Source of the DNA: Pseudobdellovibrionaceae bacterium
GTDB lineage: Bacteria; Bdellovibrionota; Bdellovibrionia; Bdellovibrionales; Bdellovibrionaceae
DNA: 46,880 nt
Reading direction: 5' to 3'
NCBI GenBank assembly: GCA_043779385.1
Contig: JAYWEU010000297.1
Location: 1-46,880 of the forward strand
Below the pieces are notes generated by a model. That model was given only the letters and a program-made list of their open reading frames with translations. It searched no databases and was not told the origin of the DNA. The first letter of the stretch is position 1; each line of letters begins with the position of its first letter. Positions 14,230-45,425 of this stretch are shown piece by piece. A program made the translations under genes and the position numbers.

Positions 14230-14293
14230 GTTTTTTTGCATTCTAAATTTTTAAAAAGGGACAATTTTCCACCTCGGGGCTTTTTGCTGGCGC

Positions 14294-14331: not shown

Positions 14332-14346
14332 TGGCATCACCTTTGC
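14332..14346 (+). promoter_or_regulatory. sigma-54 (RpoN) type promoter
   Basis: TGGCAT-cacct-TTGC has exact GG-N10-GC spacing. It lies 51 nt upstream of ATG 14398, which has its own AAGGAG. Confidence 0.6.
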
Positions 14347-14397
14347 GTCCTAACACCCATTAATGTCATTACCTCACCTCAAAAAAGGAGAAATTAT

Positions 14398-14655
14398 ATG
14401 GTTATCATTGCAACACTTGTGATTGGTTTGATCGTCGGTTTAATTGCACGATTTTTAATGCCGGGACGTGATCCCATGGGCTTTGTATTGACGGCCATTC
14501 TTGGAATTGTCGGCGCTTGGTTAGGTTCTTGGCTAGGTCAGGCGATGGGACTTTACGGACAAGGCGAGCCCGCGGGCTTCGTCATGGCGGTGATCGGAGC
14601 CATGATTGTTCTTTTTATTTACCACCTTGCTTCGCCAGGCCTTCGAAAAGTATAA
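14398..14655 (+). CDS. GlsB/YeaQ/YmgE-family small stress membrane protein
   Basis: 85-aa product MVIIATLVIGLIVGLIARFLMPGRDPMGF...GAWLG is typical of the family. AAGGAG lies 7 nt upstream. The track ORF start 14236 is an extension over non-coding DNA. Confidence 0.8.
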   Translation: MVIIATLVIGLIVGLIARFLMPGRDPMGFVLTAILGIVGAWLGSWLGQAMGLYGQGEPAGFVMAVIGAMIVLFIYHLASPGLRKV

Positions 14656-21182: not shown

Positions 21183-22364
21183 CTACTTCTTTTTAAAATC
21201 TTTTAACAAATCACCCAACGTGCCAAACTTTGATTCACTGGAATGGGATTTCCACGAGTCATCATGCAATTCGCCGGGGAGCCCTAAAGAAATTTTTCTC
21301 TCATCGGCCCGCAGTTCATCAATTTGCACAAATATCTTGTCGCCCTTTTTCTTATTCTCATATTGCGCGACATCAGTGGAATCACGCCATTTTAATTTTG
21401 GTAAAAGTCCTGTCACGCCAGGCCCAAGATTGACGAATAAACCGTAAACTTCCTTCTTCTCGACAACACCTTCAAAAACTTTTCCCAATGGATAATTTTG
21501 TAAAACACTTAGCCAAGGGTCGCTTTCTCCACCGCCTTGTTTGAGCGAAAAAGACATTCGTAAGCGACCGTCCAGCTCTTCAATTTTTAAAAGTTTCACA
21601 CTGACTTTCATTCCGGTATGAACCGAGTCCTCTGTTTTAATTCCACGGGACCAGGAAAGTTCAGATACAGGAATAAGTCCTTCAAGCTCATTTTCTAGTT
21701 TGACGAAAGCGCCAAATTTTTCCATACGAGTGACGGTTCCTTCGAACAGATCTCCCACCCGAGCTTTTTCAAGCATCTGACCTTCAATTTCTGCCATTCC
21801 TTGTTCCAGAAGTCGCCTTCTTGAGACAACAATATTTCGACCGTTATTTTCGTAGGCAGTAACAATAAATTCTAGTTTACGGCCGACATAAGCAGCCGGT
21901 TCGGTGGGGGAGCGAAGTTCAATTTGGCTTAGAGGGCAAAAAGCTTTCTCAACGCCAATCCCAATTCGGAAGCCGCCTTTAACAAGCTCCAAAACTTTTC
22001 CTTCAACCGGAATCTCCATATCAAAAGCATCTTCTAGGTTTTCAACATCCTGAGCCCCTGATCTGGCTAATTTATAACGCAGTAAAACCTCGCCCTCGCG
22101 AACTTTCAAGACAACAACTTCAAGTGCGTCGCCGACTTTAAATTTCGGATTTTTATTCTCGTCCCAAATTTCGCGAATCGGCAGGTGCCCATCCACCGCC
22201 GAGCCCGTCGACACATAAACAAATTCTTTATTGATCGTCAGGATTTCACCCTTAAATGAGTCCCCTTGTTTTAATTTTGTACCGCGCTGGCTTTGTTCAA
22301 ATAAAGAGCCAAAGTCATTTTCTGGGGTGCTGACTTCATCGCCAAATAAATCTTTTTTTGCCAT
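21183..22364 (-). CDS. S1 RNA-binding-domain protein (four S1 repeats, shorter than canonical RpsA)
   Basis: 393-aa ORF with a repeated G-x-V-x-x-V-x-x-F/G-x-F-V pattern (e.g. FEGTVTRMEKFGAFVKL and FEGVVEKKEVYGLFVNL). Confidence 0.8.
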   Translation of the reverse strand: MAKKDLFGDEVSTPENDFGSLFEQSQRGTKLKQGDSFKGEILTINKEFVYVSTGSAVDGHLPIREIWDENKNPKFKVGDALEVVVLKVREGEVLLRYKLARSGAQDVENLEDAFDMEIPVEGKVLELVKGGFRIGIGVEKAFCPLSQIELRSPTEPAAYVGRKLEFIVTAYENNGRNIVVSRRRLLEQGMAEIEGQMLEKARVGDLFEGTVTRMEKFGAFVKLENELEGLIPVSELSWSRGIKTEDSVHTGMKVSVKLLKIEELDGRLRMSFSLKQGGGESDPWLSVLQNYPLGKVFEGVVEKKEVYGLFVNLGPGVTGLLPKLKWRDSTDVAQYENKKKGDKIFVQIDELRADERKISLGLPGELHDDSWKSHSSESKFGTLGDLLKDFKKK

Positions 22365-30195: not shown

Positions 30196-30440
30196 GGAGA
30201 TCTCATTTCTTAGGTTGCCGAAGAAAATAGCACATCTTTGAAAAAAGTGGCGAAATCATCAAATTTGACCCGCAGATTTGTAAAATTTCATAAGATGGGT
30301 TGGCCCGAGGGGGCCATTTGTGAGGCTTTCTTGCTTCATAACAGGGTCCTTAAGGGTCTCAACATCACTAAAATGCCCGGGCTTGCCATTTGCAGCCTAA
30401 AAATTTTACTAAAACCTTAATGGCAAAGTCGGGAGAAATG

Positions 30441-30668
30441 ATGGGACAACAAGACAATAAACCTAATAATGAAACGACAGTGGACGGAAAGCCGCTGGTG
30501 CATCAACCACAATCAGGGGTCATATCAGCCACTGAAGAGTATATTAATGAATACACTCGAGATGACGACCCCTTGCTATCCCCCTCAGAAAGAGGGAATA
30601 CGCGGGCCGATCTTTTACATGAAACGGCGGAAGAAATTCCGAAGGGCATCAGCCATCCGATTCAGTAA
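30441..30668 (+). CDS. small hydrophilic hypothetical protein (doubtful)
   Basis: In-frame ATG 30441 has GGGAG 5 nt upstream. The 75-aa polar product has no recognised family. It could be non-coding DNA upstream of the helicase gene. Confidence 0.3.
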   Translation: MGQQDNKPNNETTVDGKPLVHQPQSGVISATEEYINEYTRDDDPLLSPSERGNTRADLLHETAEEIPKGISHPIQ

Positions 30669-32896: not shown

Positions 32897-32918
32897 TCTG
32901 ATGGTGTTTGTTGTCTGT

Positions 32919-32947
32919 GGCAGAACGACTCTTTGAGGATTTCTGCC
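32919..32947. promoter_or_regulatory. inverted repeat GGCAGAA-N15-TTCTGCC, candidate enhancer (UAS) for the downstream sigma-54 promoter
   Basis: Read directly. Its centre is about 82 nt upstream of the -24 GG at 33015, a typical enhancer-binding-protein distance. Confidence 0.3.
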
Positions 32948-33013
32948 TCGGACAAATAAAATTCAAAAATAATGACAAGCTAGCCAAGCTGCTCGGGACC
33001 GGTAAAAACTGAT

Positions 33014-33029
33014 TGGCACCGCATTTGCT
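33014..33029 (+). promoter_or_regulatory. sigma-54 (RpoN) promoter
   Basis: TGGCAC-cgcat-TTGCT is a full consensus match with GG-N10-GC spacing. It lies 29 nt upstream of ATG 33059, which has AAGGAGG. Confidence 0.7.
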
Positions 33030-33058
33030 TTAGCAAAGGTCCAACAAAGGAGGAGTTT

Positions 33059-33241
33059 ATGTTAAGAGCTGCTATTATATTTTTCGTACTGGGCTTAATT
33101 GGAATTGTTTTAGGGGCTTACAATTTTGCGGGTCTGTCTTTAGAAATAGGCAAAATTGTTTTGTTCGCCTTCTTGATTCTGGCAGCGATCAGTTTCTTGG
33201 CTTCTTTGTTGACGGGTAAAAATAGAACGACTCTGCCTTAA
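33059..33241 (+). CDS. DUF1328 (YtjA/UPF0391) small membrane protein
   Basis: 60-aa product MLRAAIIFFVLGLIGIVLGAYNFAGLS... is the typical family sequence. It has a strong RBS. Confidence 0.8.
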   Translation: MLRAAIIFFVLGLIGIVLGAYNFAGLSLEIGKIVLFAFLILAAISFLASLLTGKNRTTLP

Positions 33242-33254
33242 CAGGCTGGCTTTG

Positions 33255-33279
33255 AAGGTGGTCTACAGAAGACCGCCTT
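33255..33279 (+). terminator. hairpin after the DUF1328 gene (10-bp stem with one G-U, 5-nt loop), weak T tract
   Basis: AAGGTGGTCT-acaga-AGACCGCCTT, followed by TAAGTT. It overlaps the stop codon of the convergent Hpt gene. Confidence 0.35.
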
Positions 33280-33559
33280 TAAGTTCTAGAAACCAGTTTT
33301 TAAAATCTTTCACACAAATTTCTAACTGGACTAAATTTTTATTTTTTGCTGACGTTTCGATTTCATCGGCAATGCAACCTAGCTCATTAAAGCCAAAGGA
33401 GGCGGCGTTACCTTTCAGTTGATGCCCAAGCCGCTCAAAGTAGGCCCAGTCTAAATTTAATAATTTTAAGTCACAATTTTCGACATCTCTTAAACGACGA
33501 TCCAGATAACGCTCACGCATTTCAAGAGGAATCAGGAAGGGATTAGTATCCATATTCAT
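33263..33559 (-). CDS. stand-alone histidine phosphotransfer (Hpt) protein
   Basis: 98-aa ORF with the Hpt signature HQLKGNAASFG. Its start overlaps the stop of the upstream regulator gene by 17 nt. Confidence 0.8.
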   Translation of the reverse strand: MNMDTNPFLIPLEMRERYLDRRLRDVENCDLKLLNLDWAYFERLGHQLKGNAASFGFNELGCIADEIETSAKNKNLVQLEICVKDFKNWFLELKGGLL

Positions 33560-34985
33560 TCAGCTTGCGATACAGGGTTTTACGATCAATCCCTAGCATT
33601 TTTGCAGTCTTATCCTTGGCTCCTTTATTAAATTCTAGAATTTTAATAATATGAGTTTTAACGATCTCATCCAGCAAGAAGTGGGGTACGGGGGTCTCAA
33701 TGCCCTTGGCACTTTGTTCTTCTTGATAGTTCGAAGATGTAATCAATGGCAGGGCCTTATTTTCTGAAGGCAGATGAGAAGGGTCTATCAACATATCGGC
33801 GGGAGTAATTTCTTCGGATTGGCAAAGCACCACGGCCCGCTCGACTGTATTTTCAAGCTCACGCACATTTCCAGACCAACGATGCCGAAGGAGAAAACTT
33901 AAAGTTTCATTTGAAAATCTTTTAGCAGTGGAAACATTCACCGATGAAAAGCGACGCAAGAAAAACTCTGCCAATGGCATAATATCTTCGGGTCTATCCC
34001 GAAGTGGAGGAATATGGATCGGGATCACATTTAACCTAAAGTACAAATCTTCACGAAACCGGTGTTCAATGACTTCTTGTTTTAGATTGCGGTGAGTGGC
34101 TGCTAAAATTCGGACATTGATATCCCGAAAACGATTTTCACCAATACGTTTTATTTTTCGATCTTGCAGAACTCGCAAAAGTTTTGCTTGCAAGGGCTGA
34201 CTTAAATCACCAATTTCATCCAGAAAAAGTGTTCCGCCTTCAGCCTCTTCAAAGAGGCCGGCTTTCTTGTCGATAGCGCCGGTGAAGGATCCCTTGGCAT
34301 AACCAAAAAGCTCGGCTTCAAGCAAAGTCTCAGGGATAGCAGCACAGTTAATAGCGATAAAGGGGCCATCACTGCGGCTGCCAGACTCATGAATAGTTCG
34401 GGCAATCACTTCTTTTCCCGTACCACTTTCGCCAGTGATTAAAATGTTGGCTTGGCTTTGCGCGACTCTGCGAGCTAAATCTAAGGCATTTCTAAATCCC
34501 TGACTTTTTGCCACCACCTTGTCCGAGGGAGTTTCTGTCTTTTCTTTCAAAGCCTGTCGAAGATGAGTGTTCTCATGAAGAATTTCTTTAAACCGCACCG
34601 CACGTTGAAGAGAAATTTCCAATTGCGGTAAATGAAGCGGTTTAACAATAAAATCAAAGGCGCCTGCTTGGATGGCCTCGTAAGCCGTTTGGATCGAGGA
34701 CTTCGAAGTGATAAGAATCATTGGCAGAGTCACGCCCCAAGCTCGAAGCTTTTTAATCAGCTCTGTCCCGGTTAAATCTGGAAGTAATAAATCTGTAATA
34801 ATGACATCAGCATAAAGATTTCTTTTTTTAGCCTCTTCAAGCAGCTGCAAGGGGCTTTCGAAAAATGTCATCGAATAACCACGAGGGGTGAAGTAAGCCT
34901 TTAGTAAATCTTGAACATCGATGTCATCTTCAATCACAATAATTTCTATATCTTGATTTTTGGTATTCCCGAGCGTCAGTGCCAT
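33543..34985 (-). CDS. sigma-54-dependent response regulator (NtrC family: REC + AAA+ + Fis-type HTH)
   Basis: REC domain (IIVIEDD...ITDLLLPD...K), Walker A GESGTGKE, GSFTGA loop, Walker B LFLDEIG, and a C-terminal HTH (TAKMLGIDRKTLYRKL). ATG 34985 is preferred over the track start 35042. Confidence 0.9.
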   Translation of the reverse strand: MALTLGNTKNQDIEIIVIEDDIDVQDLLKAYFTPRGYSMTFFESPLQLLEEAKKRNLYADVIITDLLLPDLTGTELIKKLRAWGVTLPMILITSKSSIQTAYEAIQAGAFDFIVKPLHLPQLEISLQRAVRFKEILHENTHLRQALKEKTETPSDKVVAKSQGFRNALDLARRVAQSQANILITGESGTGKEVIARTIHESGSRSDGPFIAINCAAIPETLLEAELFGYAKGSFTGAIDKKAGLFEEAEGGTLFLDEIGDLSQPLQAKLLRVLQDRKIKRIGENRFRDINVRILAATHRNLKQEVIEHRFREDLYFRLNVIPIHIPPLRDRPEDIMPLAEFFLRRFSSVNVSTAKRFSNETLSFLLRHRWSGNVRELENTVERAVVLCQSEEITPADMLIDPSHLPSENKALPLITSSNYQEEQSAKGIETPVPHFLLDEIVKTHIIKILEFNKGAKDKTAKMLGIDRKTLYRKLNEYGY

Positions 34986-35100
34986 AAGTTGAGTTCCTTT
35001 TTGACCAAGATTAACTACTTTACAAGGGGAAATTTGCCACAATAGGGGGGCCGAGTCTAACTTCTAATTGTGAAGATTCCGAGATATTTGGATATCGCGC

Positions 35101-35116
35101 TGGTACGCTTGTTGCT
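35101..35116 (+). promoter_or_regulatory. sigma-54 (RpoN) promoter
   Basis: TGGTAC-gcttg-TTGCT with GG-N10-GC spacing. It lies 27 nt upstream of ATG 35144, which has AAGGAG 6 nt upstream. Confidence 0.6.
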
Positions 35117-35143
35117 TTGATCAAAGTCAACAAGGAGATATTT

Positions 35144-35338
35144 ATGAAACCGTTTGAAGATCAAAAAAATTCAGAAGAAGAAAAAAAAACACAAAATGAG
35201 CAAAAGCGCACAGCTCCGATGGCACCACAAAAGTCCAGTGAATCGATGGACGAGAATCAAAAAAGCGATGACACGACGAATCCCTATCATGATTTTGAAA
35301 TGGATGAAAACAATGTCGAAGAAGACACCAAACATTAA
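35144..35338 (+). CDS. small, highly acidic/hydrophilic protein (hydrophilin-like), unknown function
   Basis: 64-aa product MKPFEDQKNSEEEKKTQNEQ...DENNVEEDTKH. It has a good RBS and a terminator hairpin immediately downstream. Confidence 0.55.
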   Translation: MKPFEDQKNSEEEKKTQNEQKRTAPMAPQKSSESMDENQKSDDTTNPYHDFEMDENNVEEDTKH

Positions 35339-35344
35339 AAAAAG

Positions 35345-35365
35345 AGGCCTCCCATTGGGAGGCCT
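35345..35365. terminator. bidirectional intrinsic terminator
   Basis: 9-bp GC-rich stem AGGCCTCCC-att-GGGAGGCCT. A-run on the 5' side, and a single T then GTT on the 3' side. It lies between convergent genes. Confidence 0.7.
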
Positions 35366-35428
35366 TGTTAGCATCTAAGAGTGATCGATGGGGAAATAGA
35401 TAGGCTGTAGCAAGATGGCTGATTTTAA

Positions 35429-35722
35429 TTAGCGATGAACACTAAATTTACTAGAAACGAAAGATGAGACCATTTTAAAAGAAGGCAAAGTAAAGCGCCT
35501 TTCAAGTTTGCGTCTTAAATCTTTTCGTAGTTGTAGATAGATCACTCCAAGATTTTCTAATTCAGTTTTAGTAAGATAAGTTTTAATTTTTGGAAATAGT
35601 TCTTGTTCTTCCTCTTTAAGATGATGTGCGACCAGTTTTAAGGCAGCCAACGACTCGCGCAGAATCTGGTGATCGCGCTTGATCATTTGAAGAATACTGT
35701 TGTTTTGAACAGGTTTTTTCAT
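35429..35722 (-). CDS. short hemerythrin-HHE-like protein
   Basis: ATG 35722 has AGAGG 4-5 nt upstream (the track start 35728 is GTG). It has IKRDHQILRE and HHLKEEEQELFP (H/HxxxE-type ligands), but the segment between them is much shorter than in canonical hemerythrin domains. Confidence 0.45.
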   Translation of the reverse strand: MKKPVQNNSILQMIKRDHQILRESLAALKLVAHHLKEEEQELFPKIKTYLTKTELENLGVIYLQLRKDLRRKLERRFTLPSFKMVSSFVSSKFSVHR

Positions 35723-35750
35723 CGGCACCTCTGTTTAAAAAATCATATTA

Positions 35751-35766
35751 TGCAATTGCAAGACCA
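35751..35766 (-). promoter_or_regulatory. sigma-54 (RpoN) type promoter
   Basis: Reverse strand reads TGGTCT-tgcaa-TTGCA with GG-N10-GC spacing. It lies 28 nt upstream of ATG 35722. Confidence 0.5.
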
Positions 35767-35968
35767 GACCCCTTGCTTAAGAAGATGGAAGTTCCCAGTG
35801 GGACGCGGCTACTAATTATTGATTGAATTCTGAAATCACTTGTTTTTACGTCGCTTTGTTGATCATAGATCCGTTCAATCTAGCCCCAAATGGGTCAACT
35901 CGCCCCAGTCTTTTAAGAGAACGTCTTGCCAAAAGGCATTAAAAGTTCACTTGGACGGTTTAATTGCT

Positions 35969-35984
35969 TGGACTCTAAATTGCA
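35969..35984 (+). promoter_or_regulatory. sigma-54-like promoter (weaker -24 box)
   Basis: TGGACT-ctaaa-TTGCA with GG-N10-GC spacing. It lies 44 nt upstream of ATG 36029. Confidence 0.4.
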
Positions 35985-36028
35985 ATTTAATCCCCGACGA
36001 TGAGTGCACATACTTTGAAGGAGATCAT

Positions 36029-36706
36029 ATGAAAAAGATTATTTTAATGTTTTCAATTTTAACAAGCGTCTTTACTAATTTTTCCGTGGCGTTTGCAGCT
36101 GACGATACCGTGGACTCATCGCGGACTGGCGATGCCGATGTTCGATCTCATCGAAGCTCTGGTGGTTTATTCGTTGAGCCTATGCTGATTTATTCTAAAA
36201 ATGAAGCTTCCATAAAAACTTCGCAACTGCCACTTCTGACTGGCGACAGCTCAGGAACCATCAACGATGCAGCGATTGGTGCAAGACTTGGCTTTCATGT
36301 GGCAGATATTTTTATTTTAGCGGCCGATGGTCGATATGGAAAATCTCGGTTTCAGGACTCGCTTTATTCGACGGCTGACGGATCAGATTATAATTATGGT
36401 GTGACGGCTGGAGTTCAAACGCCATTGGCCGGCATCCAATTGTTTGGAACTTATATTTTGGGCGGGGTCTTTGATCCTGCGGCGGGCGCCAATAATATAG
36501 ATATGAAATTTACAGACGCCCGGGGTTACAGAGTCGGAGCAGGCCTTCATATTTTGGCGGCCAGTGTAAATCTAGAGTATCAAGATCTGACTTATAATAA
36601 CTCGACGATTGAATCTTTTGGAAATTTCACAGTCAATCAATCATCAAAAGTGGATGCGACTCAGCGGGGATACGCCGTCAGTTTAGGTTTTCCAATCGAA
36701 TTATAA
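36029..36706 (+). CDS. outer-membrane beta-barrel protein
   Basis: Internal ATG 36029 has GAAGGAG upstream. Signal peptide is ILTSVFTNFSVAFA|AD, followed by alternating beta-strand pattern. The track start 35840 is an extension. Confidence 0.65.
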   Translation: MKKIILMFSILTSVFTNFSVAFAADDTVDSSRTGDADVRSHRSSGGLFVEPMLIYSKNEASIKTSQLPLLTGDSSGTINDAAIGARLGFHVADIFILAADGRYGKSRFQDSLYSTADGSDYNYGVTAGVQTPLAGIQLFGTYILGGVFDPAAGANNIDMKFTDARGYRVGAGLHILAASVNLEYQDLTYNNSTIESFGNFTVNQSSKVDATQRGYAVSLGFPIEL

Positions 36707-36750
36707 TTTAATTAACGAAGCCAAAATGGTCTTCCACAAAAGGAGTTAAA

Positions 36751-37059
36751 ATGGATCAATCATTAGATCGCAACTTGAATAAAGCAGGAGATAAAATTTT
36801 AAATGCGGGACGGGATGCAAAAAATGTCATCACAGAGTCTGCTCAGAAAATGACGGATTCTGCAAAAAATCTTGAGGTCCCTGCGGCCATCACAGAACAA
36901 TTGAAAGCCTTAAAAGAACAGTCACAAGTGGTTTTAGACCGCACTGAGGAGCTGGTTAAAAAGCATCCTTTCTATGCAGTTCTTGGCGCTGCGGCGGTGG
37001 GTGCTATCGTTGCTAGCCTTGTGAGCAGTGGTCTTTCATCGCGTCGGAACAATCGCTAA
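36751..37059 (+). CDS. DUF883 (ElaB/YqjD-like) tail-anchored stress protein
   Basis: 102-aa ORF with a helical hydrophilic N-part and a C-terminal anchor (KKHPFYAVLGAAAVGAIVASLV) typical of the family. Confidence 0.7.
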   Translation: MDQSLDRNLNKAGDKILNAGRDAKNVITESAQKMTDSAKNLEVPAAITEQLKALKEQSQVVLDRTEELVKKHPFYAVLGAAAVGAIVASLVSSGLSSRRNNR

Positions 37060-37086
37060 AATTTTTTTATAAAAAGGAAAAACAAA

Positions 37087-37545
37087 ATGCTTCGACTTTT
37101 CACTCTACTAGCTACGTATTTTATCGGAAAATCCTTAAGCCACATTAACGGTCAGGCCGGGACGGCTCCGCTGATGTTTCGCTTACCACTTCTTATGATC
37201 AGAAAAATTTTAAAGCTTTTTATGATTGGATTTGGAAGTTTGCTGGTCGGTGTGGTGGGTTTGACATTTCTTTTGAAAGATATTTTTTTTCAATTGCAAG
37301 TGAATAGCCAAATACTCCTTACAGCCACGACTGGAATTTCACTTCTAGTGGTGGCTTCAGGGTTTGGTATTTGTGTTTGGACTTTTCGTAAAAAGAATTG
37401 GGTGGATGCCGAAGATCTGACAGTTCCTGCCGAGCCCATCGTGGGTCAAGAGGCTCCTCATCAGTCAGACTTGATGACAGCTTTGATGGCCATGGCTTCA
37501 GATTTCCTGAATGAAAAAGCTCATCGGCGAGCGTCCCCTCTTTAG
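37087..37545 (+). CDS. membrane protein, possibly a YqjE/DUF1469-like partner of the DUF883 protein
   Basis: 152-aa ORF with 2-3 TM segments. Its position directly after a DUF883 gene mirrors E. coli yqjD-yqjE. The sequence match is not verified. Confidence 0.35.
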   Translation: MLRLFTLLATYFIGKSLSHINGQAGTAPLMFRLPLLMIRKILKLFMIGFGSLLVGVVGLTFLLKDIFFQLQVNSQILLTATTGISLLVVASGFGICVWTFRKKNWVDAEDLTVPAEPIVGQEAPHQSDLMTALMAMASDFLNEKAHRRASPL

Positions 37546-37597
37546 GGGGATCTGAATTTTAAAATGCTAAAAGTTTTCACAACCAAAAGGAGATTTT

Positions 37598-37882
37598 ATG
37601 ATCAACGAAAATATTGTTAAGGGCCAGTGGAAAGAAATTAAAGGCGAAATTCAAAAAAAATGGGGACAGTTAACCAATGATGATTTGGATCGTGTCCAAG
37701 GTGATGTCAAAGCTTTGGAAGGCCTGATGCAAAAGAAATTAGGTTTTCAGCAAGAGCATGCCCGAACCGAGTTAAGCTCATTTTTGGAGCGCTGGACTTC
37801 TAAAAGTGATTCCTCAAAACCCTCAGATGAAAGCGCAAATAATTTCAGATCTAGCAAAAGTAATAAAGAAACCAATTTCTAA
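37598..37882 (+). CDS. CsbD-family general stress protein
   Basis: 94-aa ORF. GQWKEIKGEIQKKWGQLTNDDLDRVQGD is the CsbD signature. Confidence 0.85.
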   Translation: MINENIVKGQWKEIKGEIQKKWGQLTNDDLDRVQGDVKALEGLMQKKLGFQQEHARTELSSFLERWTSKSDSSKPSDESANNFRSSKSNKETNF

Positions 37883-37906
37883 GAGAACGAAAAGACATTT
37901 ACGACA

Positions 37907-37934
37907 AAAGAGTGGGTGGTAACTCACTCTTTTG
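37907..37934 (+). terminator. intrinsic terminator after csbD
   Basis: AAAGAGTG - 10-nt loop - CACTCTTT; the final TTT of the stem leads into TGG. Confidence 0.55.
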
Positions 37935-38063
37935 GTGCCTTAGTTCTGCTAGTCAGCAGCGATTGCCTAGGTTGTAGCTGCTTTGACAAACTCTTAGATT
38001 AATTGGCACCTCATCTTGATGAGCGTCCCTGGCCCTGATATCTTTAGAATCAGAGGTCACAGA

Positions 38064-38507
38064 GTGAAAAAAGTTTTTCATTTAGTCTATATTAGCGAAG
38101 CCTACGAACAGATTTGCTATTCCGATATTCAAAACATCTTAGAGTCCTCTAAAACCAATAATTTAAAAAACAATATCTCGGGTCTTCTTATCTACAAGGA
38201 TCATCATTTTATTCAAATTCTTGAAGGGGACGAGTCAGCAGTGATCAAGACGATGGGGCGAATTATTCAAGATCGTCGAAATCATCACGTTCGAGTCATT
38301 ATTGAATCCTTAAGTAACCAAAGAATTTTTGAAAATTGGGCCATGGCTTTTCATGATGGGGATATCAATCCCTCAGCCTCTGAAGTGGTGATAAAAATTT
38401 TTGAGACCGCCTTAGATCAGAATCAAAAAGAAAAAGAAAGTCTTCTGCCGCTGCTTCAATGTTTCCGGCGAAGCGCACCCCTTTTTAGAGAAGACTCCAT
38501 CAGCTAA
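38064..38507 (+). CDS. short BLUF-domain (blue-light FAD) photoreceptor
   Basis: GTG 38064 has AGAGG upstream. Tyr in HLVYIS, Gln in FIQILEG and Trp/Met in FENWAMAF are the conserved BLUF photocycle positions. Confidence 0.75.
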   Translation: MKKVFHLVYISEAYEQICYSDIQNILESSKTNNLKNNISGLLIYKDHHFIQILEGDESAVIKTMGRIIQDRRNHHVRVIIESLSNQRIFENWAMAFHDGDINPSASEVVIKIFETALDQNQKEKESLLPLLQCFRRSAPLFREDSIS

Positions 38508-38566: not shown

Positions 38567-38812
38567 TTACTTAGTAGCTTTTTCTTCTTTTTTTGCTTCT
38601 TTAGCAGCATGCTTTTCCATTTTTTCATGCTTTTTCATAGCATGCTTTTCTTTTTTCATCTCAGTAGCAGCAGGCATTGCAGCTTCTGTAGTAGTTGTTG
38701 TTGTAGTTGTAGCAGCAGGAGTTGCAGCAGGTGTAGCAGCTGTGTGAGCAGTGTCAGCAGCAAACGCAGAACCAGCAACGATAACAGACAATAATAAAGC
38801 AGCGATTTTCAT
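38567..38812 (-). CDS. small secreted Ala/Thr- and Met/Lys/His-rich repeat protein (MxKDx-repeat-like)
   Basis: Internal ATG 38812 has AGGAGG upstream. Signal peptide is MKIAALLLSVIVAGSAFA|AD, followed by (ATPA)2, T8 and EMKKEKHAMKKHEKMEKHAAKEAKKEEK. Confidence 0.6.
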   Translation of the reverse strand: MKIAALLLSVIVAGSAFAADTAHTAATPAATPAATTTTTTTTEAAMPAATEMKKEKHAMKKHEKMEKHAAKEAKKEEKATK

Positions 38813-38897: not shown

Positions 38898-40379
38898 TTA
38901 AATATTTTTAATCTCGTTACGAATTTCAAAATGGAATTCAGCGCCTTTGCTTATGTTATCAGCAAGATAGAGCTTACTGCTATGAAGTTGTGCAATCTTA
39001 TAAGCGATCGCTAAACCTAAACCATAGCCCTGAGTGGCTCGATCAGCGTCCTGACCCCGACGGAAGCGTTCAAAAATACGCTCGCGCTCTAAGGGGGGGA
39101 TGCCACGGCCCTGATCCTTGATAATAATTTCAGAGGTTGCCGGCGTCCAAACAAGCTTCACCATCACCATTTCTTTTTCTGGCGAATATTTAATGGCATT
39201 TTCTAATAAAATAACAACGACGTGCTGAAGCAGATCAAAATCTCCGCGCACCATTTTTGGTTCTTGGTGATTGTCGCTGATATCAAATTTTATTTTAATA
39301 TTTTTCGACTGAGCTAACCCTTCAACGCGGCCCAAAGCATCGATAATCACTTCGTCCATGCTGAGGGACTGTAGGTTGAGGGCACCAAACCCAGCATCCA
39401 CGCGCGCCAATAATAACATGTCCTTTACGATTCTGGAAAGATGATCGACTTCCTGCAAAGTGCTTTTAAAAACGCGATTTTTTTCTTCTTCCGTCGCGTT
39501 GGGTTTTAAAGCCCGCTCGACTTCGCCTTTCATAATCGTTAGCGGCGTGAGCAACTGATGGGATGCATCGGCGACAAAACGCTCTTGGCTCAAAAAAGCC
39601 TTTTCAATTCGGTCCAGCATTTCATTCAAAGTCAGCGCCAGTTGTTTGATTTCGTCGTTGGGAACAGGAACAGGCACCCTTTGCGAGAGCTCATGAATAT
39701 CGATCGACTGAGCTGTCTGAATCATATGGGTCACCGGTGCTAAGGCCCGGCCCGAGACAAAAAATCCAATCAGGCCCGCGATGATCAGAACAAGGGGAAT
39801 GCCAACTTGTAAGTAGTGCAGCCGATTTTGAATTTGGCTTTCCAGAAGATGCATGGGCACAGCGATTTGCAATAAATAGTGGGGGTTTGAAATATTATCC
39901 AGAGGAAAGCTGATCACGCGGTAACTGAGGGCTTCGGCAGAGGGAATCTTGTCCTCAACTTCAACGGTTCTGAAAATAGCTTCTTCACCTTTTCTAATTT
40001 TAGCAAAATCATTTTTATAGGGAGGATCAAACGTCCCGAATTCGCCAACGCGGGTTTCAATCTTGCCCTTTTCGTCACGCACTTGAATTAAGGCTGTTCC
40101 CAATGGGAAAGGCAGGATTTTTCCGTGATCCACTTTCAGTGGCGGAAATGCCAAATCTCCTTCGCGATCAATTTCGATGGATTCTGAAACATCGACCGAG
40201 TAATTAAAAAGCGCATCGTCGAAATCTCTTTGTAAAGTTTGAATCGTAAAGACAAATAGAATGGCATTGAAAACCACTGTCGTGGAGCCAAAAATCAAAA
40301 GGAGCAACAGAGCCAGCTTGGCTCGAATGTTAACCTTTTGGAACAGCCGTGGAATTTTCTTTAAGAACGTAGCCAACAC
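38898..40379 (-). CDS. sensor histidine kinase (periplasmic loop, HAMP, HisKA, HATPase)
   Basis: 493-aa ORF starting at GTG. It has two TM segments flanking a ~140-aa loop, the H-box FVADASHQLLTPL, an N-box LENAIKYS and a G2 box GYGLGLAI. Confidence 0.9.
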   Translation of the reverse strand: MLATFLKKIPRLFQKVNIRAKLALLLLLIFGSTTVVFNAILFVFTIQTLQRDFDDALFNYSVDVSESIEIDREGDLAFPPLKVDHGKILPFPLGTALIQVRDEKGKIETRVGEFGTFDPPYKNDFAKIRKGEEAIFRTVEVEDKIPSAEALSYRVISFPLDNISNPHYLLQIAVPMHLLESQIQNRLHYLQVGIPLVLIIAGLIGFFVSGRALAPVTHMIQTAQSIDIHELSQRVPVPVPNDEIKQLALTLNEMLDRIEKAFLSQERFVADASHQLLTPLTIMKGEVERALKPNATEEEKNRVFKSTLQEVDHLSRIVKDMLLLARVDAGFGALNLQSLSMDEVIIDALGRVEGLAQSKNIKIKFDISDNHQEPKMVRGDFDLLQHVVVILLENAIKYSPEKEMVMVKLVWTPATSEIIIKDQGRGIPPLERERIFERFRRGQDADRATQGYGLGLAIAYKIAQLHSSKLYLADNISKGAEFHFEIRNEIKNI

Positions 40380-41028
40380 CCACCACCGTATGAATCAATT
40401 TTTTTGAAAAAGGCGCATCGACTTTTTTTCTCAGAAGATTAATGTAAACATCAATGACATTGCTTTCTGAATCAAAATGAATGTCCCACACATGTTCTGC
40501 GATAGAAACTCGGCCCAAAGGGCGCTCGGGATTTCGCATAAAATACTCTAGAAGCGCAAATTCTTTAGAGGTCAGCGGCACCTCTTGATTTTCCCGGCGC
40601 ACAATTCGAGAGATTAAATCTAACTCAAGATCGGAATATCTTAAGACAGAGGTGCTGGCATTGGTTGCGCCTTTGCGACGAAGGAGGGCGCGGACCCGGG
40701 CTAAAAGCTCATCAAATGAATACGGCTTGGTCAGATAATCGTCGGCACCAGCGTCCAGCCCTGCAATTTTATCTTTCGTCGTTGAAAGCGCCGTCAGCAT
40801 AAGGATAGGACCTTCAAAACCATCCCGTCTGAAATGTCGGGCGGTATCGAAGCCATTTTGATCGGGCAGCATGACATCTAAGATCACCAAATCATATTCG
40901 CCTTGGGACATATAACTTTCCGCCGCAGCCCCGCTTTCGGCGGTATCGACCGCATAGCCACCCTCATTCAGTCCTTTTTTTAAGAACTGGGCGACTTTCA
41001 CTTGATCTTCGACAACTAAAATTCGCAT
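40330..41028 (-). CDS. OmpR-family response regulator
   Basis: 232-aa ORF with a REC domain (MRILVVEDQ...LDVMLPD...K) and a winged-helix output domain (LTSKEFALLEYF...RVSIAEHVW). The downstream kinase ORF, as tracked, overlaps it by 50 nt. Confidence 0.9.
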   Translation of the reverse strand: MRILVVEDQVKVAQFLKKGLNEGGYAVDTAESGAAAESYMSQGEYDLVILDVMLPDQNGFDTARHFRRDGFEGPILMLTALSTTKDKIAGLDAGADDYLTKPYSFDELLARVRALLRRKGATNASTSVLRYSDLELDLISRIVRRENQEVPLTSKEFALLEYFMRNPERPLGRVSIAEHVWDIHFDSESNVIDVYINLLRKKVDAPFSKKLIHTVVGVGYVLKENSTAVPKG

Positions 41029-44696: not shown

Positions 44697-45425
44697 ATGA
44701 AAGCATTAAATATTGGGCTCGTGGTTTTGGTTTCTTTAGGCTTTGTCGCCTGTCAAAAAAAATTAGACACCGACCAAAAAAAGGTCAGCTATGCTATTGG
44801 TCGTCAAATTGGTCAGAACATTAAACAAGTTGGTTTAGAAGTTGATGCCGATGTGGTTGGCATGTCGATCGCCGATGTTCTAAAAGATAAAAATCAAATG
44901 ACAGAAGAAGATATCAAAGCGGCTCAGGCAAAGCTTCAAGAAATGATGATGAAAAAAAGCCAAGAAGCCAATGCTAAAAGCCAAGAACAAGCTGGAGAGA
45001 ATAAAAAGAAAGCCGATGAATTCTTAGCTAAAAACAAAACAGCTGAAGGTGTTAAAACAACAGCTTCTGGTCTTCAGTATATTGTTGATAAAGAAGGAAC
45101 AGGCGCTTCTCCAAAAGAAAGCGATATGGTTCGGGTTCATTACAAAGGAACTTTACTATCAGGCGAAGAGTTTGATTCTTCTTACGCGCGTAAAGAGCCA
45201 GCTGAATTTCCAGTCAGTGGAGTGATCAAAGGTTGGGGCGAAGCGCTTCAATTAATGAAAGTCGGCGGCAAATATAAACTGTTCGTTCCACCAGACCTAG
45301 CTTACGCTGATAAATCCGGTGGAAAAATTCCTCCCAATTCATTGTTGATCTTTGAAGTTGAATTATTGGATGTTGTGAAGCCACCAAAACCAGGTGCAGC
45401 GGCTCCAGCTCCTAAAAAGAAATAG
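44697..45425 (+). CDS. FKBP-type peptidyl-prolyl isomerase lipoprotein (Mip/FkpA-like)
   Basis: Lipobox LGFVAC. It has an N-terminal dimerisation-helix region and an FKBP core (VRVHYKGTLLSGEEFDSS, GVIKGWGEAL, IPPNSLLIFEVELL). Confidence 0.9.
   Translation: MKALNIGLVVLVSLGFVACQKKLDTDQKKVSYAIGRQIGQNIKQVGLEVDADVVGMSIADVLKDKNQMTEEDIKAAQAKLQEMMMKKSQEANAKSQEQAGENKKKADEFLAKNKTAEGVKTTASGLQYIVDKEGTGASPKESDMVRVHYKGTLLSGEEFDSSYARKEPAEFPVSGVIKGWGEALQLMKVGGKYKLFVPPDLAYADKSGGKIPPNSLLIFEVELLDVVKPPKPGAAAPAPKKK

Follow-up and report, generated by a model that had tools for sequence, protein, structure and literature searches.

We analyzed a window of 46,880 nt, positions 1-46,880 of contig JAYWEU010000297.1 from a Pseudobdellovibrionaceae bacterium, a relative of predatory bacteria (Bdellovibrionota; assembly GCA_043779385.1; GC content ~42%), and within it an island in which the genes for a sigma-54 enhancer-binding protein (EBP) and a stand-alone histidine phosphotransfer (Hpt) protein are flanked by four candidate sigma-54 promoters, P1 to P4 (Table 1). 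P1 precedes a gene for a small DUF1328/YtjA-type membrane protein, P2 a gene for a very acidic protein, P3, on the reverse strand, a hemerythrin-like gene, and P4 a string of genes encoding an outer membrane protein (OMP), a protein resembling ElaB/YqjD (DUF883), a further membrane protein and a CsbD-family protein. We propose, with a probability of roughly three in four, that this region forms the center of a regulon of small stress-type proteins that depends on sigma-54 and is under the control of the neighboring, phosphorelay-controlled activator. The wiring of the island appears to be conserved across Bdellovibrionota and seems to be undescribed.

All four motifs lie where the earlier note, a first reading of this DNA, had placed them, keep the GG-N10-GC spacing and are followed by a Shine-Dalgarno (SD) sequence and a start codon; the distances to the ATG of about 30, 28, 28 and 45 nt given there were adjusted slightly on measurement (Table 1). 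When scored with a sigma-54 weight matrix against Markov-2 simulations, P1 and P2, which are near-consensus, were the two best matches in the window, with 2 scores of at least 16 observed and 0.14 expected, whereas the -24 hexamers of P3 and P4 are weak. The bare pattern TGG-N8-TTGC was not enriched (10 matches in the window against 8.9 expected). The earlier estimate of about 5 chance matches was too low and had been made for a TGG-N9-TTGC pattern whose spacing was wrong: as written, that pattern has 13 matches, none of which is a claimed site. The accompanying argument that the matches are all non-coding did not hold for the bare pattern, 5 of whose 10 matches are coding, but it did hold in terms of orientation and distance for the scored intergenic matches. 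Intergenic DNA makes up 8.3% of the window, yet it contains 6 of the 23 matches scoring at least 9.4, and all six are oriented toward, and lie 27-50 nt before, start codons of small stress-type genes, compared to 0.46 expected from the coding-DNA rate and 57 genes. Two of the six are outside the island, before a GlsB/YeaQ gene (14398-14655) and a 75-aa open reading frame (ORF; 30441-30668). The matrix scan, suggested as a check for the genome and run here on the window, favored the promoters by the position of the six intergenic matches and by the scores of P1 and P2, which exceed the null, but not by the scores of P3 and P4. The latter are at noise level, and position, more than score, is decisive for the promoter case.

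The promoters were next compared among six family-level lineages, namely the window and the loci L002 (activator 83% identical), L161, L163, L165 and L167, some of them reached via homologues of the DUF883-like and OMP proteins, and in L001, a metagenome-assembled contig whose activator is 98% identical. The -24 and -12 elements are conserved in 4 lineages for P1, 6 for P2, 5 for P3 and 6 for P4. P1 is kept in L001, L002 and L167, 27-29 nt before the DUF1328 ATG, and P2 is found as TGGTAY-N5-TTGCT in the window, L001, L002, L163, L165 and L167. P3 recurs as TGGTCY-N5-TTGCA, 27-29 nt before the start of the hemerythrin gene, in the window, L002, L163, L165 and L167, and P4 as TGG[AT][AC][CT]-N5-TTGCA, 35-55 nt before the OMP start, in 6/6 lineages (TGGACTctaaaTTGCA in the window, TGGACTtggttTTGCA in L002, TGGACTcgaatTTGCA in L161, TGGACCcgaaaTTGCA in L163, TGGAACtgatcTTGCA in L165 and TGGTCCctaaaTTGCA in L167); the L165 version is near-consensus (TGGAAC, score 13.7). 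The N5 spacers and the surrounding DNA differ between lineages and are largely unalignable, and conservation of the -24 and -12 elements amid such divergence is the signature expected of functional elements.

The same arrangement extends beyond the family. Orthologues of the activator, 53-98% identical, occur throughout Bdellovibrionota, and in 25 ortholog loci (EBP identity at least 53%, counted where flanks exist) the EBP gene is linked to Hpt in 18, to DUF1328 in 20 and to CsbD in 12, whereas none of these linkages was found in ~135 control loci with other EBPs (~40% identity). In Bacteriovoracaceae, Peredibacter and Halobacteriovorax the activator is ~55% identical, its linkage to Hpt, CsbD and one or two DUF1328 genes persists, and each locus contains 4-6 strong sigma-54 motifs. 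Over 216 kb of these more distant loci, 69 matches scoring at least 13 were observed against 9.75 expected; they lie 25-50 nt before the SD sequence and ATG of DUF1328, CsbD and small hydrophilic genes, and the products of the latter have N-termini that recall ElaB and no Pfam match. The OMP operons and CsbD genes of Bacteriovoracaceae also carry strong sigma-54 motifs. In two further loci, L170 and L171, the same genes are arranged around the activator in other orders but with the same wiring; in L171, genes for Ku and LigD (non-homologous end joining) adjoin the EBP-DUF1328 cluster. In a genome of cultured Bdellovibrio bacteriovorus, TGGCACcattgATGCT precedes CsbD by 47 nt and TGGCACcgtcgTTGCT precedes DUF1328-OMP by 41 nt. 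The divergent CsbD/DUF1328 spacer of that species (L169:7560-7620) also contains two direct AATTGCCCC repeats, ~58-80 nt upstream of the DUF1328 sigma-54 motif, which resemble one half of the dyad described below; the exact dyad pattern was not found in the B. bacteriovorus locus.

Gibbs sampling upstream of the promoters returned a dyad of the form AGGGGCAAAATTCCCC. Written as the 15-bp pattern G[AGT]GGCA-N4-[AT]CC[ACT]C, it occurs exactly twice in the window, where 0.25 matches are expected, once upstream of P1 and once between P2 and the start of the EBP gene. The site upstream of P1 is the top match of a matrix trained only on Bacteriovoracaceae sites and is kept in L001, and a related GGGGCAATACGACC occurs in L002. 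The 15-mer upstream of P2 adjoins the P2 equivalent in identical form in L001, L002, L163, L165 and L167, within a conserved block of an otherwise diverged spacer. The degenerate site between P3 and P4 scored 13.1 with a hand-curated matrix and is positionally homologous to exact dyads 38-63 nt upstream of P4 in L161, L163, L165 and L167. Counting both promoters, exact dyads lie 38-69 nt upstream of the P3 and P4 motifs in these four lineages; L167 has a single dyad between P3 (69 nt) and P4 (62 nt), and L165 has one per promoter. Across the ortholog loci there are 21 dyad matches in 0.28 Mb compared to 6 in 1.28 Mb of control EBP loci, a ~16-fold higher rate, and 21/21 lie upstream of a sigma-54 motif, at 38-140 nt and mostly at 50-64 nt. 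These data support a shared upstream dyad that would tie the promoters to one activator and is largely specific to loci with this EBP orthologue. The earlier note had proposed another element near P1, the inverted repeat GGCAGAA-N15-TTCTGCC (32919-32947), as the enhancer. The repeat exists, and its right arm overlaps the dyad, but it is not conserved: the right arm is TTATGCC in L001 and no repeat is present in L002, and we replaced it with the overlapping dyad. A further enhancer-matrix match at 45318-45335 (score 16) was treated as chance because it falls within an FKBP-type gene and is not followed by a sigma-54 motif.

The activator itself has the features of the NtrC class: a receiver domain with the phospho-acceptor Asp, in which the residues DD, D, T/S and K are complete in the translation, an AAA+ domain with Walker A (GESGTGKE) and Walker B-type (LFLDEIG) motifs, a GAFTGA-type loop in the A-to-S variant GSFTGA, and a Fis-type helix-turn-helix (HTH). 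Family assignments were made by Pfam gathering scores and NCBIfam cut-offs, and the protein falls below every NCBIfam equivalog cut-off, with AtoC (412 bits), NtrC (382 bits) and LuxO (351) among its matches and ZraR and PspF likewise below theirs. Its HTH segment, GAK[DE][KQ]TAK.LGIDRKTLYRKL, is kept among orthologues, which fits the conserved dyad site. As had been read from the sequence originally, this is the sole EBP in the window, and the domains seen then were all recovered by Pfam. The 98-aa Hpt protein was likewise borne out: it passes the Pfam threshold, has the HxxKG histidine, and its ORF overlaps the EBP stop by 17 nt, an overlap also present in L002, L165 and L167. The NCBIfam model nearest to it is LuxU (E=3e-5, 24.3 bits, below cut-off).

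A His-Asp phosphorelay with an unknown kinase had been suggested for this pair, and the suggestion is strengthened by the relatives. A hybrid kinase gene lies inside the island, directly upstream of P4, in 3/6 family-level lineages, encoding a CHASE-HisKA-HATPase-REC protein of 909 aa in L163, a HisKA-HATPase-REC protein of 652 aa in L165/166, and a C-terminal fragment at the contig edge in L161. These proteins are candidates for the missing kinase and fit a relay from kinase to its own receiver, to Hpt and to the EBP receiver. The only kinase of the window (38898-40379) is a classical HAMP-HisKA-HATPase protein paired with an OmpR-type regulator (both genes together 38898-41028, reverse strand), and it is an unlikely Hpt donor because it has no receiver domain. 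L002 and L161 have both genes in synteny with the island, and in L164 the kinase alone is present at the locus edge.

Table 1. Predicted features of the island and of the outlying candidate loci in the window
Feature	Position	Strand	Details
Sigma-54 motif TGGCATcacctTTGCG	14332-14347	+	score 13.0, third best in window; intergenic; 50 nt before start; SD present
Enhancer-like site GGGACAATTTTCCAC	14258-14272	+	1 mismatch to dyad; 59 nt upstream of YeaQ promoter
GlsB/YeaQ/YmgE gene, 85 aa	14398-14655	+	Transgly_assoc PF04226, E=5.4e-16, 59 vs gathering 25.3
Sigma-54 motif GGGCTTgccatTTGCA	30379-30394	+	score 11.0; intergenic; 46 nt before 75-aa hydrophilic ORF (30441-30668)
Weaker half-site-like copy GTGGCAGAACGACTC	32917-32931		
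Candidate upstream activating dyad GAGGCAGAAATCCTC	32935-32949	-	exact match; 64 nt upstream of P1 TGG; overlaps right arm of inverted repeat
P1 TGGCACcgcatTTGCT	33014-33029	+	score 16.4, joint top of window; 29 nt upstream of ATG 33059
DUF1328/YtjA-type protein, two transmembrane segments, 60 aa	33059-33241	+	Pfam DUF1328 (PF07043), E=5.9e-4, 20.6 bits vs gathering 27, full model length
Stand-alone Hpt, HQLKGNAASFG, 98 aa	33263-33559	-	Pfam Hpt PF01627, 31.1 bits vs gathering 24.6
NtrC-class sigma-54 EBP, 480 aa	33543-34985	-	Pfam Sigma54_activat E=1.6e-70, Response_reg, AAA_lid_14, HTH_8
Candidate enhancer dyad GTGGCAAATTTCCCC	35026-35040	-	exact match; 60 nt upstream of P2 TGG, 41-55 nt upstream of EBP ATG
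P2 TGGTACgcttgTTGCT	35101-35116	+	score 16.4; 27 nt upstream of ATG 35144; divergent from EBP
Very acidic disordered-type protein, 64 aa	35144-35338	+	GRAVY (mean hydropathy) -2.15, pI 4.5, 0% Gly; no Pfam/NCBIfam match
Bidirectional terminator hairpin AGGCCTCCCAATGGGAGGCCT	35345-35365		terminator scan; between convergent acidic and hemerythrin-like genes; kept in L002
Hemerythrin-domain (PA2171-like) remnant, 97 aa	35429-35722	-	Pfam Hemerythrin E=0.014; in-frame internal deletion of ~84 residues
P3 TGGTCTtgcaaTTGCA	35766-35751	-	score 10.0; -24 non-consensus (TGGTCT); 28 nt upstream of ATG 35722
Degenerate enhancer-like site GGGTCAACTCGCCCC	35891-35905	+	2 mismatches; 62 nt upstream of P4, 124 nt upstream of P3
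P4 TGGACTctaaaTTGCA	35969-35984	+	score 9.5; -24 non-consensus (TGGACT); 44 nt upstream of ATG 36029
Secreted beta-barrel OMP, 225 aa	36029-36706	+	no direct Pfam match; signal-peptide-like N-terminus read from sequence
Tail-anchored ElaB/YqjD (DUF883)-resembling protein, 102 aa	36751-37059	+	DUF883_C E=0.048, weak; no N-domain match
Membrane protein, 152 aa	37087-37545	+	no family match; conserved partner of DUF883-like gene
CsbD-family protein, 94 aa	37598-37882	+	Pfam CsbD (PF05532), 44.1 bits vs gathering 40
Intrinsic terminator of P4 operon	37914-37935	+	hairpin GGGTGGTAACTCACTC (37914-37929), then TTTTGG; terminator scan

Put together, these features suggest the following mechanism. Sigma-54 RNA polymerase would be held in closed complexes at P1, P2, P3 and P4, and probably also at the GlsB/YeaQ promoter at 14332. 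We infer that the EBP is the protein that binds the ~15-bp dyad, an approximation of the palindrome GTGGCAAATTTGCCAC centred ~70 nt upstream of each -24 element, and that, once its receiver Asp is phosphorylated, it uses ATP to open the promoters. Phosphate would pass from a hybrid histidine kinase, presumably encoded elsewhere in this genome, to the kinase's own receiver, then to the Hpt protein, whose translation would be coupled to that of the activator, and finally to the activator receiver; this direction of flow, like the inducing signal that would set it off, is our proposal. The sequence features, their statistics and their conservation are observed, whereas the dependence on sigma-54 is predicted from them. 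The outputs would be the DUF1328/YtjA peptide, the acidic disordered protein, the decayed PA2171-like hemerythrin protein and, from the P4 operon, the beta-barrel OMP, the ElaB-like tail-anchored protein, the membrane protein and CsbD.

Several observations weigh against this mechanism. By score, P3 and P4 are within noise: 22 matches of at least 9.5 were found against 18.8 expected, such that ~20 chance sites score equally well. Their -24 hexamers are poor and lack the usual CA after GG, and the enhancer-like site near them in the window is degenerate, with two mismatches, and lies far from P3 (124 nt). The weight matrix is moreover an approximation of the Barrios consensus. It could be that only P1 and P2 are sigma-54 promoters, P3 and P4 being conserved binding sites or promoters of another kind, with a sigma-70-family holoenzyme responsible for the hemerythrin and OMP-CsbD transcripts. 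We consider this unlikely, since the distance of GG-N10-GC and TTGCA from the starts of orthologous genes is fixed across 5 lineages in the case of P3 and 6 in that of P4, while spacers and flanks change; moreover, four relatives have exact dyads upstream of these motifs, the P4 equivalent of L165 is near-consensus, the OMP operons and CsbD genes of Bacteriovoracaceae have strong sigma-54 motifs, and a sigma-70 scan gave nothing above chance there. That all four motifs are chance occurrences of GG-N10-GC in AT-rich spacers of an ordinary sigma-70-transcribed cluster would agree with the lack of enrichment of the bare pattern, but it is very improbable given the scores of P1 and P2 far above the null and the outcome of the positional test (6 against 0.46), and it is already contradicted by the conservation of the motifs across lineages and classes.

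A different question is whether the promoters, if sigma-54-dependent, answer to the adjacent EBP. They could be activated by an EBP encoded elsewhere, with the adjacent EBP/Hpt pair controlling at most its immediate neighbors or something unrelated. B. bacteriovorus has no activator within 8 kb of its CsbD and DUF1328 promoters, and a different EBP could act there; candidate regulon members in the window (14332, 30379) lie 2.5-19 kb away; and delta-type genomes encode many EBPs (PMC3526173). The dyad that would link promoters and activator was formulated as a pattern after the sites had been seen, and a fully blind enhancer matrix gave scores of 17.4 and 15.1, which are not exceptional against a mean null maximum of 14.7, and did not list the P4 site, so that the significance of the dyad rests on its position and specificity. 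In favor of the adjacent EBP, six lineages have a dyad next to the start of its gene, loci of other EBPs seldom contain one, dyad and DNA-binding helix are conserved together, and EBP, Hpt, DUF1328 and CsbD stay linked in the ortholog loci despite reshuffled gene order and orientation. We regard activation by an EBP encoded elsewhere as improbable. Other points count against the proposed relay and regulon in a more general way. The rpoN gene is not within the window; no hybrid kinase is encoded in the window or near the Bacteriovoracaceae loci examined; in Bacteriovoracaceae the Hpt gene is adjacent to but convergent with the activator gene and not co-transcribed with it; and three effectors are without a confident family assignment. 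With these points included, control of P1 to P4 by the neighboring activator is the reading we prefer, and the original suggestion that a stress-like gene set is wired to sigma-54 is supported by the comparative promoter conservation and by the shared dyad.

The closest working analogue is the LuxO-LuxU system of Vibrio quorum sensing, in which the hybrid kinases LuxN, LuxQ and CqsS feed the Hpt protein LuxU and, through it, the sigma-54 EBP LuxO, which acts at the qrr promoters. In both systems the gene for a REC-AAA+-HTH activator is followed directly, within one operon, by a stand-alone Hpt gene; hybrid kinases provide the input (in the island's case candidates encoded in relatives), several sigma-54 promoters share one activator site (as predicted for the island), and LuxU and LuxO are among the NCBIfam matches of the two island proteins. 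The island proteins are nevertheless not members of these equivalogs (LuxO 351 against a cut-off of 800, LuxU 24.3 against 140), the island lies in a different lineage, its kinase is not in the window, its targets are protein-coding stress-type genes and not Qrr small RNAs (sRNAs), and the LuxO binding-site sequence differs from the island dyad. In PspF-psp, a sigma-54 envelope stress system, divergent sigma-54 promoters likewise flank the activator gene and drive small membrane-associated stress proteins; its effectors are not homologous to those of the island, PspF models are below cut-off for the EBP, and PspF, which is controlled by PspA binding, lacks the receiver domain that the island EBP has. 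NtrC, AtoC and ZraR share the domain architecture and the dyad enhancers upstream of -24, and AtoC and NtrC give the best NCBIfam matches, but the island's input would come via an Hpt relay and not from an adjacent cognate kinase, the regulon content is different, and no equivalog cut-off is reached. Computationally, a LuxO/LuxU-style sigma-54 phosphorelay driving general-stress-type effectors is well supported, and what seems to be new is the predicted wiring of a standard sigma-54 activator and phosphorelay to such effectors through a newly defined candidate enhancer.

The term 'general stress' is used here as a label and derives from the families of the effectors. Alternative sigma-70-family factors (RpoS, SigB, EcfG) are the textbook basis of general stress responses, and the proposed regulon shares with theirs CsbD/YjbJ, DUF1328/YtjA, GlsB/YeaQ/YmgE, ElaB/YqjD-like and PA2171-like effectors, whereas its predicted promoter class is sigma-54 with an ATPase activator and not a sigma-70-family alternative sigma factor under partner switching or proteolysis. 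Sigma-54 promoters are regarded as essentially silent without their activator, so that the response would have different dynamics. If the proposed wiring is correct, the same effector families placed on sigma-54 and an ATP-dependent, phosphorelay-gated activator would constitute an independent solution to the same problem. In Salmonella, YjbJ (CsbD-like) and YtjA (DUF1328) are sigma-S-controlled small proteins (PMC5437024), and PA2171 of P. aeruginosa, to which the orthologues of the window's hemerythrin-like protein are distantly related, is a ribosome- and FtsZ-binding persister protein (PMC13041383). The sigma factors named for B. bacteriovorus HD100 are RpoD, FliA, RpoN, two ECF (extracytoplasmic function) sigmas and Bd3314, with no RpoS among them (PMC3464611). 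A full-text literature search returned nothing linking sigma-54 to these effector families and nothing on this system in Bdellovibrio. As a tentative extension, which we consider possible but less likely than not, the EBP/Hpt relay and sigma-54 could form the general stress or dormancy switch of Bdellovibrionota, which appear to be free of RpoS by published sigma inventories. In such a switch one activator with a GTGGCAAATTTGCCAC-like enhancer would turn on dispersed ribosome- and membrane-targeting CsbD, YtjA, YeaQ, ElaB-like and PA2171-like proteins, and this could help cells to survive the attack phase, in which they do not grow; a CHASE-type hybrid kinase, and possibly the conserved neighboring BLUF sensor, would supply the inputs, and the Bacteriovoracaceae version may include a sigma-54-driven structured RNA. 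Gene regulation in predatory Bdellovibrionota has been explored very little, and cultured B. bacteriovorus and Peredibacter offer direct access to the parts predicted here (six promoters, a 15-bp enhancer, an activator, an Hpt protein and a candidate kinase).

The family labels originally given to the output genes fared differently. CsbD is above its Pfam threshold. The DUF1328 label is supported by homologues: the 60-aa protein reaches E=4e-9, still below cut-off, with the NCBIfam PRK13682 family and shares 55% identity with a PF07043-carrying protein of B. bacteriovorus. So is the OMP label, as PF13505 (OMP_b-brl) is present in dozens of homologues (40-57% identity), one of them from B. bacteriovorus. 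The hemerythrin-like label stands by orthology, but the gene is internally deleted. Orthologues of 185-192 aa carry PF01814 (E=5e-10 and 40.3 bits in L002; precomputed matches in L165 and L167), and alignment against L002, L165 and L167 showed that ~84 central codons are deleted in the window whereas promoter, SD sequence and start are kept; the 97-aa product lacks a complete HHE domain and matches the NCBIfam PA2171 family at E=1.7e-8, below cut-off. The PA2171 equivalog cut-off is not reached (59 vs 190). The gene may be decaying or may have acquired a new function. The DUF883 label is weakly supported: DUF883_C gave weak matches, to the C-terminal glycine zipper, in 7/14 homologues of the 102-aa protein, an hhalign comparison with E. 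coli ElaB was marginal and covered the C-terminal 34 residues (P=0.0015), and one homologue is annotated by JGI as ElaB/YqjD/DUF883. Neither Pfam nor NCBIfam, searched directly, gave a match for the acidic ORF, the 152-aa membrane protein or the 75-aa ORF. Hydrophilins are defined by a Gly content above 6% and high hydrophilicity, and the acidic protein, with no Gly, does not qualify, such that 'hydrophilin-like' was a descriptive term and not a family; a motif, NPY[HT][DE][FL][EQ]M[DE]E, is common to it and to its positional equivalents of 100 aa in L002 and 80 aa in L165. The 152-aa membrane protein is kept in L002, L161, L165 (40% identity) and L167. The hairpin and T-run described at 37907-37934 as the end of the P4 string were recovered by the terminator scan.

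Outside the island, the GlsB/YeaQ gene is probably an outlying member of the regulon, given its promoter motif and enhancer-like site (Table 1). YeaQ homologues in four other Bdellovibrionota loci (L172-L175) have sigma-54 motifs 23-32 nt before their starts, with GGGG.AA.TTTGC-type sites, while YeaQ genes beside ~41%-identical EBPs in Myxococcota and Acidobacteriota (L019, L021, L077) showed no clear promoter relation. The 75-aa hydrophilic ORF is a possible further member: it is 72% identical in L002, where it is preceded by AGGCCTcaggtTTGCA, and L001 has GGGCTCgtcatTTGCA; no dyad match was found upstream of its promoter motif. Three other sigma-54-like sequences were rejected. TGGCACgttggGTGAT (21210-21225), before an OsmC-like ORF, lies inside the coding region of the upstream gene and lacks the -12 GC; TGGCACctcatCTTGA, which precedes the BLUF gene, was read as lacking a correctly spaced -12 GC; and TGGTTCTGCGTTTGCT (38759-38774) is part of the sequence that encodes the signal peptide of a small secreted protein, which accounts for its conservation in L002.

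This secreted low-complexity protein (38567-38812, reverse strand) has a signal peptide, a Thr/Ala/Pro-rich stretch and a Lys/His/Glu-rich tail, and is kept in L002 and probably in L161. Directly downstream of the CsbD terminator lies a gene for a BLUF blue-light sensor (38064-38507; PF04940, E=2.7e-26) with no sigma-54 motif before it. L002, L161, L163/164 and L165/166 likewise have the BLUF gene close to the island, in some cases preceded by a Na+/H+ antiporter gene, and, speculatively, its product might serve as a light input.

In Bacteriovoracaceae (L006-L018 and L081-L086; for example L009:7736-7911 and L018:7742-7902), a sigma-54 promoter lies between the Hpt and Methyltransf_32 genes and is followed by a conserved 110-150-nt structured RNA. 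Its elements are a 5' hairpin (ACGUnnGGUCCGAAUGGACCnACG), an unpaired CCUGCAC and a 3' hairpin of 9 bp immediately upstream of the methyltransferase ATG, and RNAalifold predicted 18 pairs, 11 of them with compensatory changes. The RNA has no Rfam match (only a tRNA was found in L009) and no copy in the window, and it could be an sRNA, in parallel to LuxO-qrr, or a regulatory leader. Among the closer relatives, a BrkB/YihY-family gene lies between Hpt and DUF1328 in L002 (L002:7690-8472), and an extra gene of ~200-220 aa is inserted between the membrane protein and CsbD genes at L161:2460-3131, L163:6949-7590 and L165:6815-7423, its products in L161 and L165 having a lipoprotein-like N-terminus.

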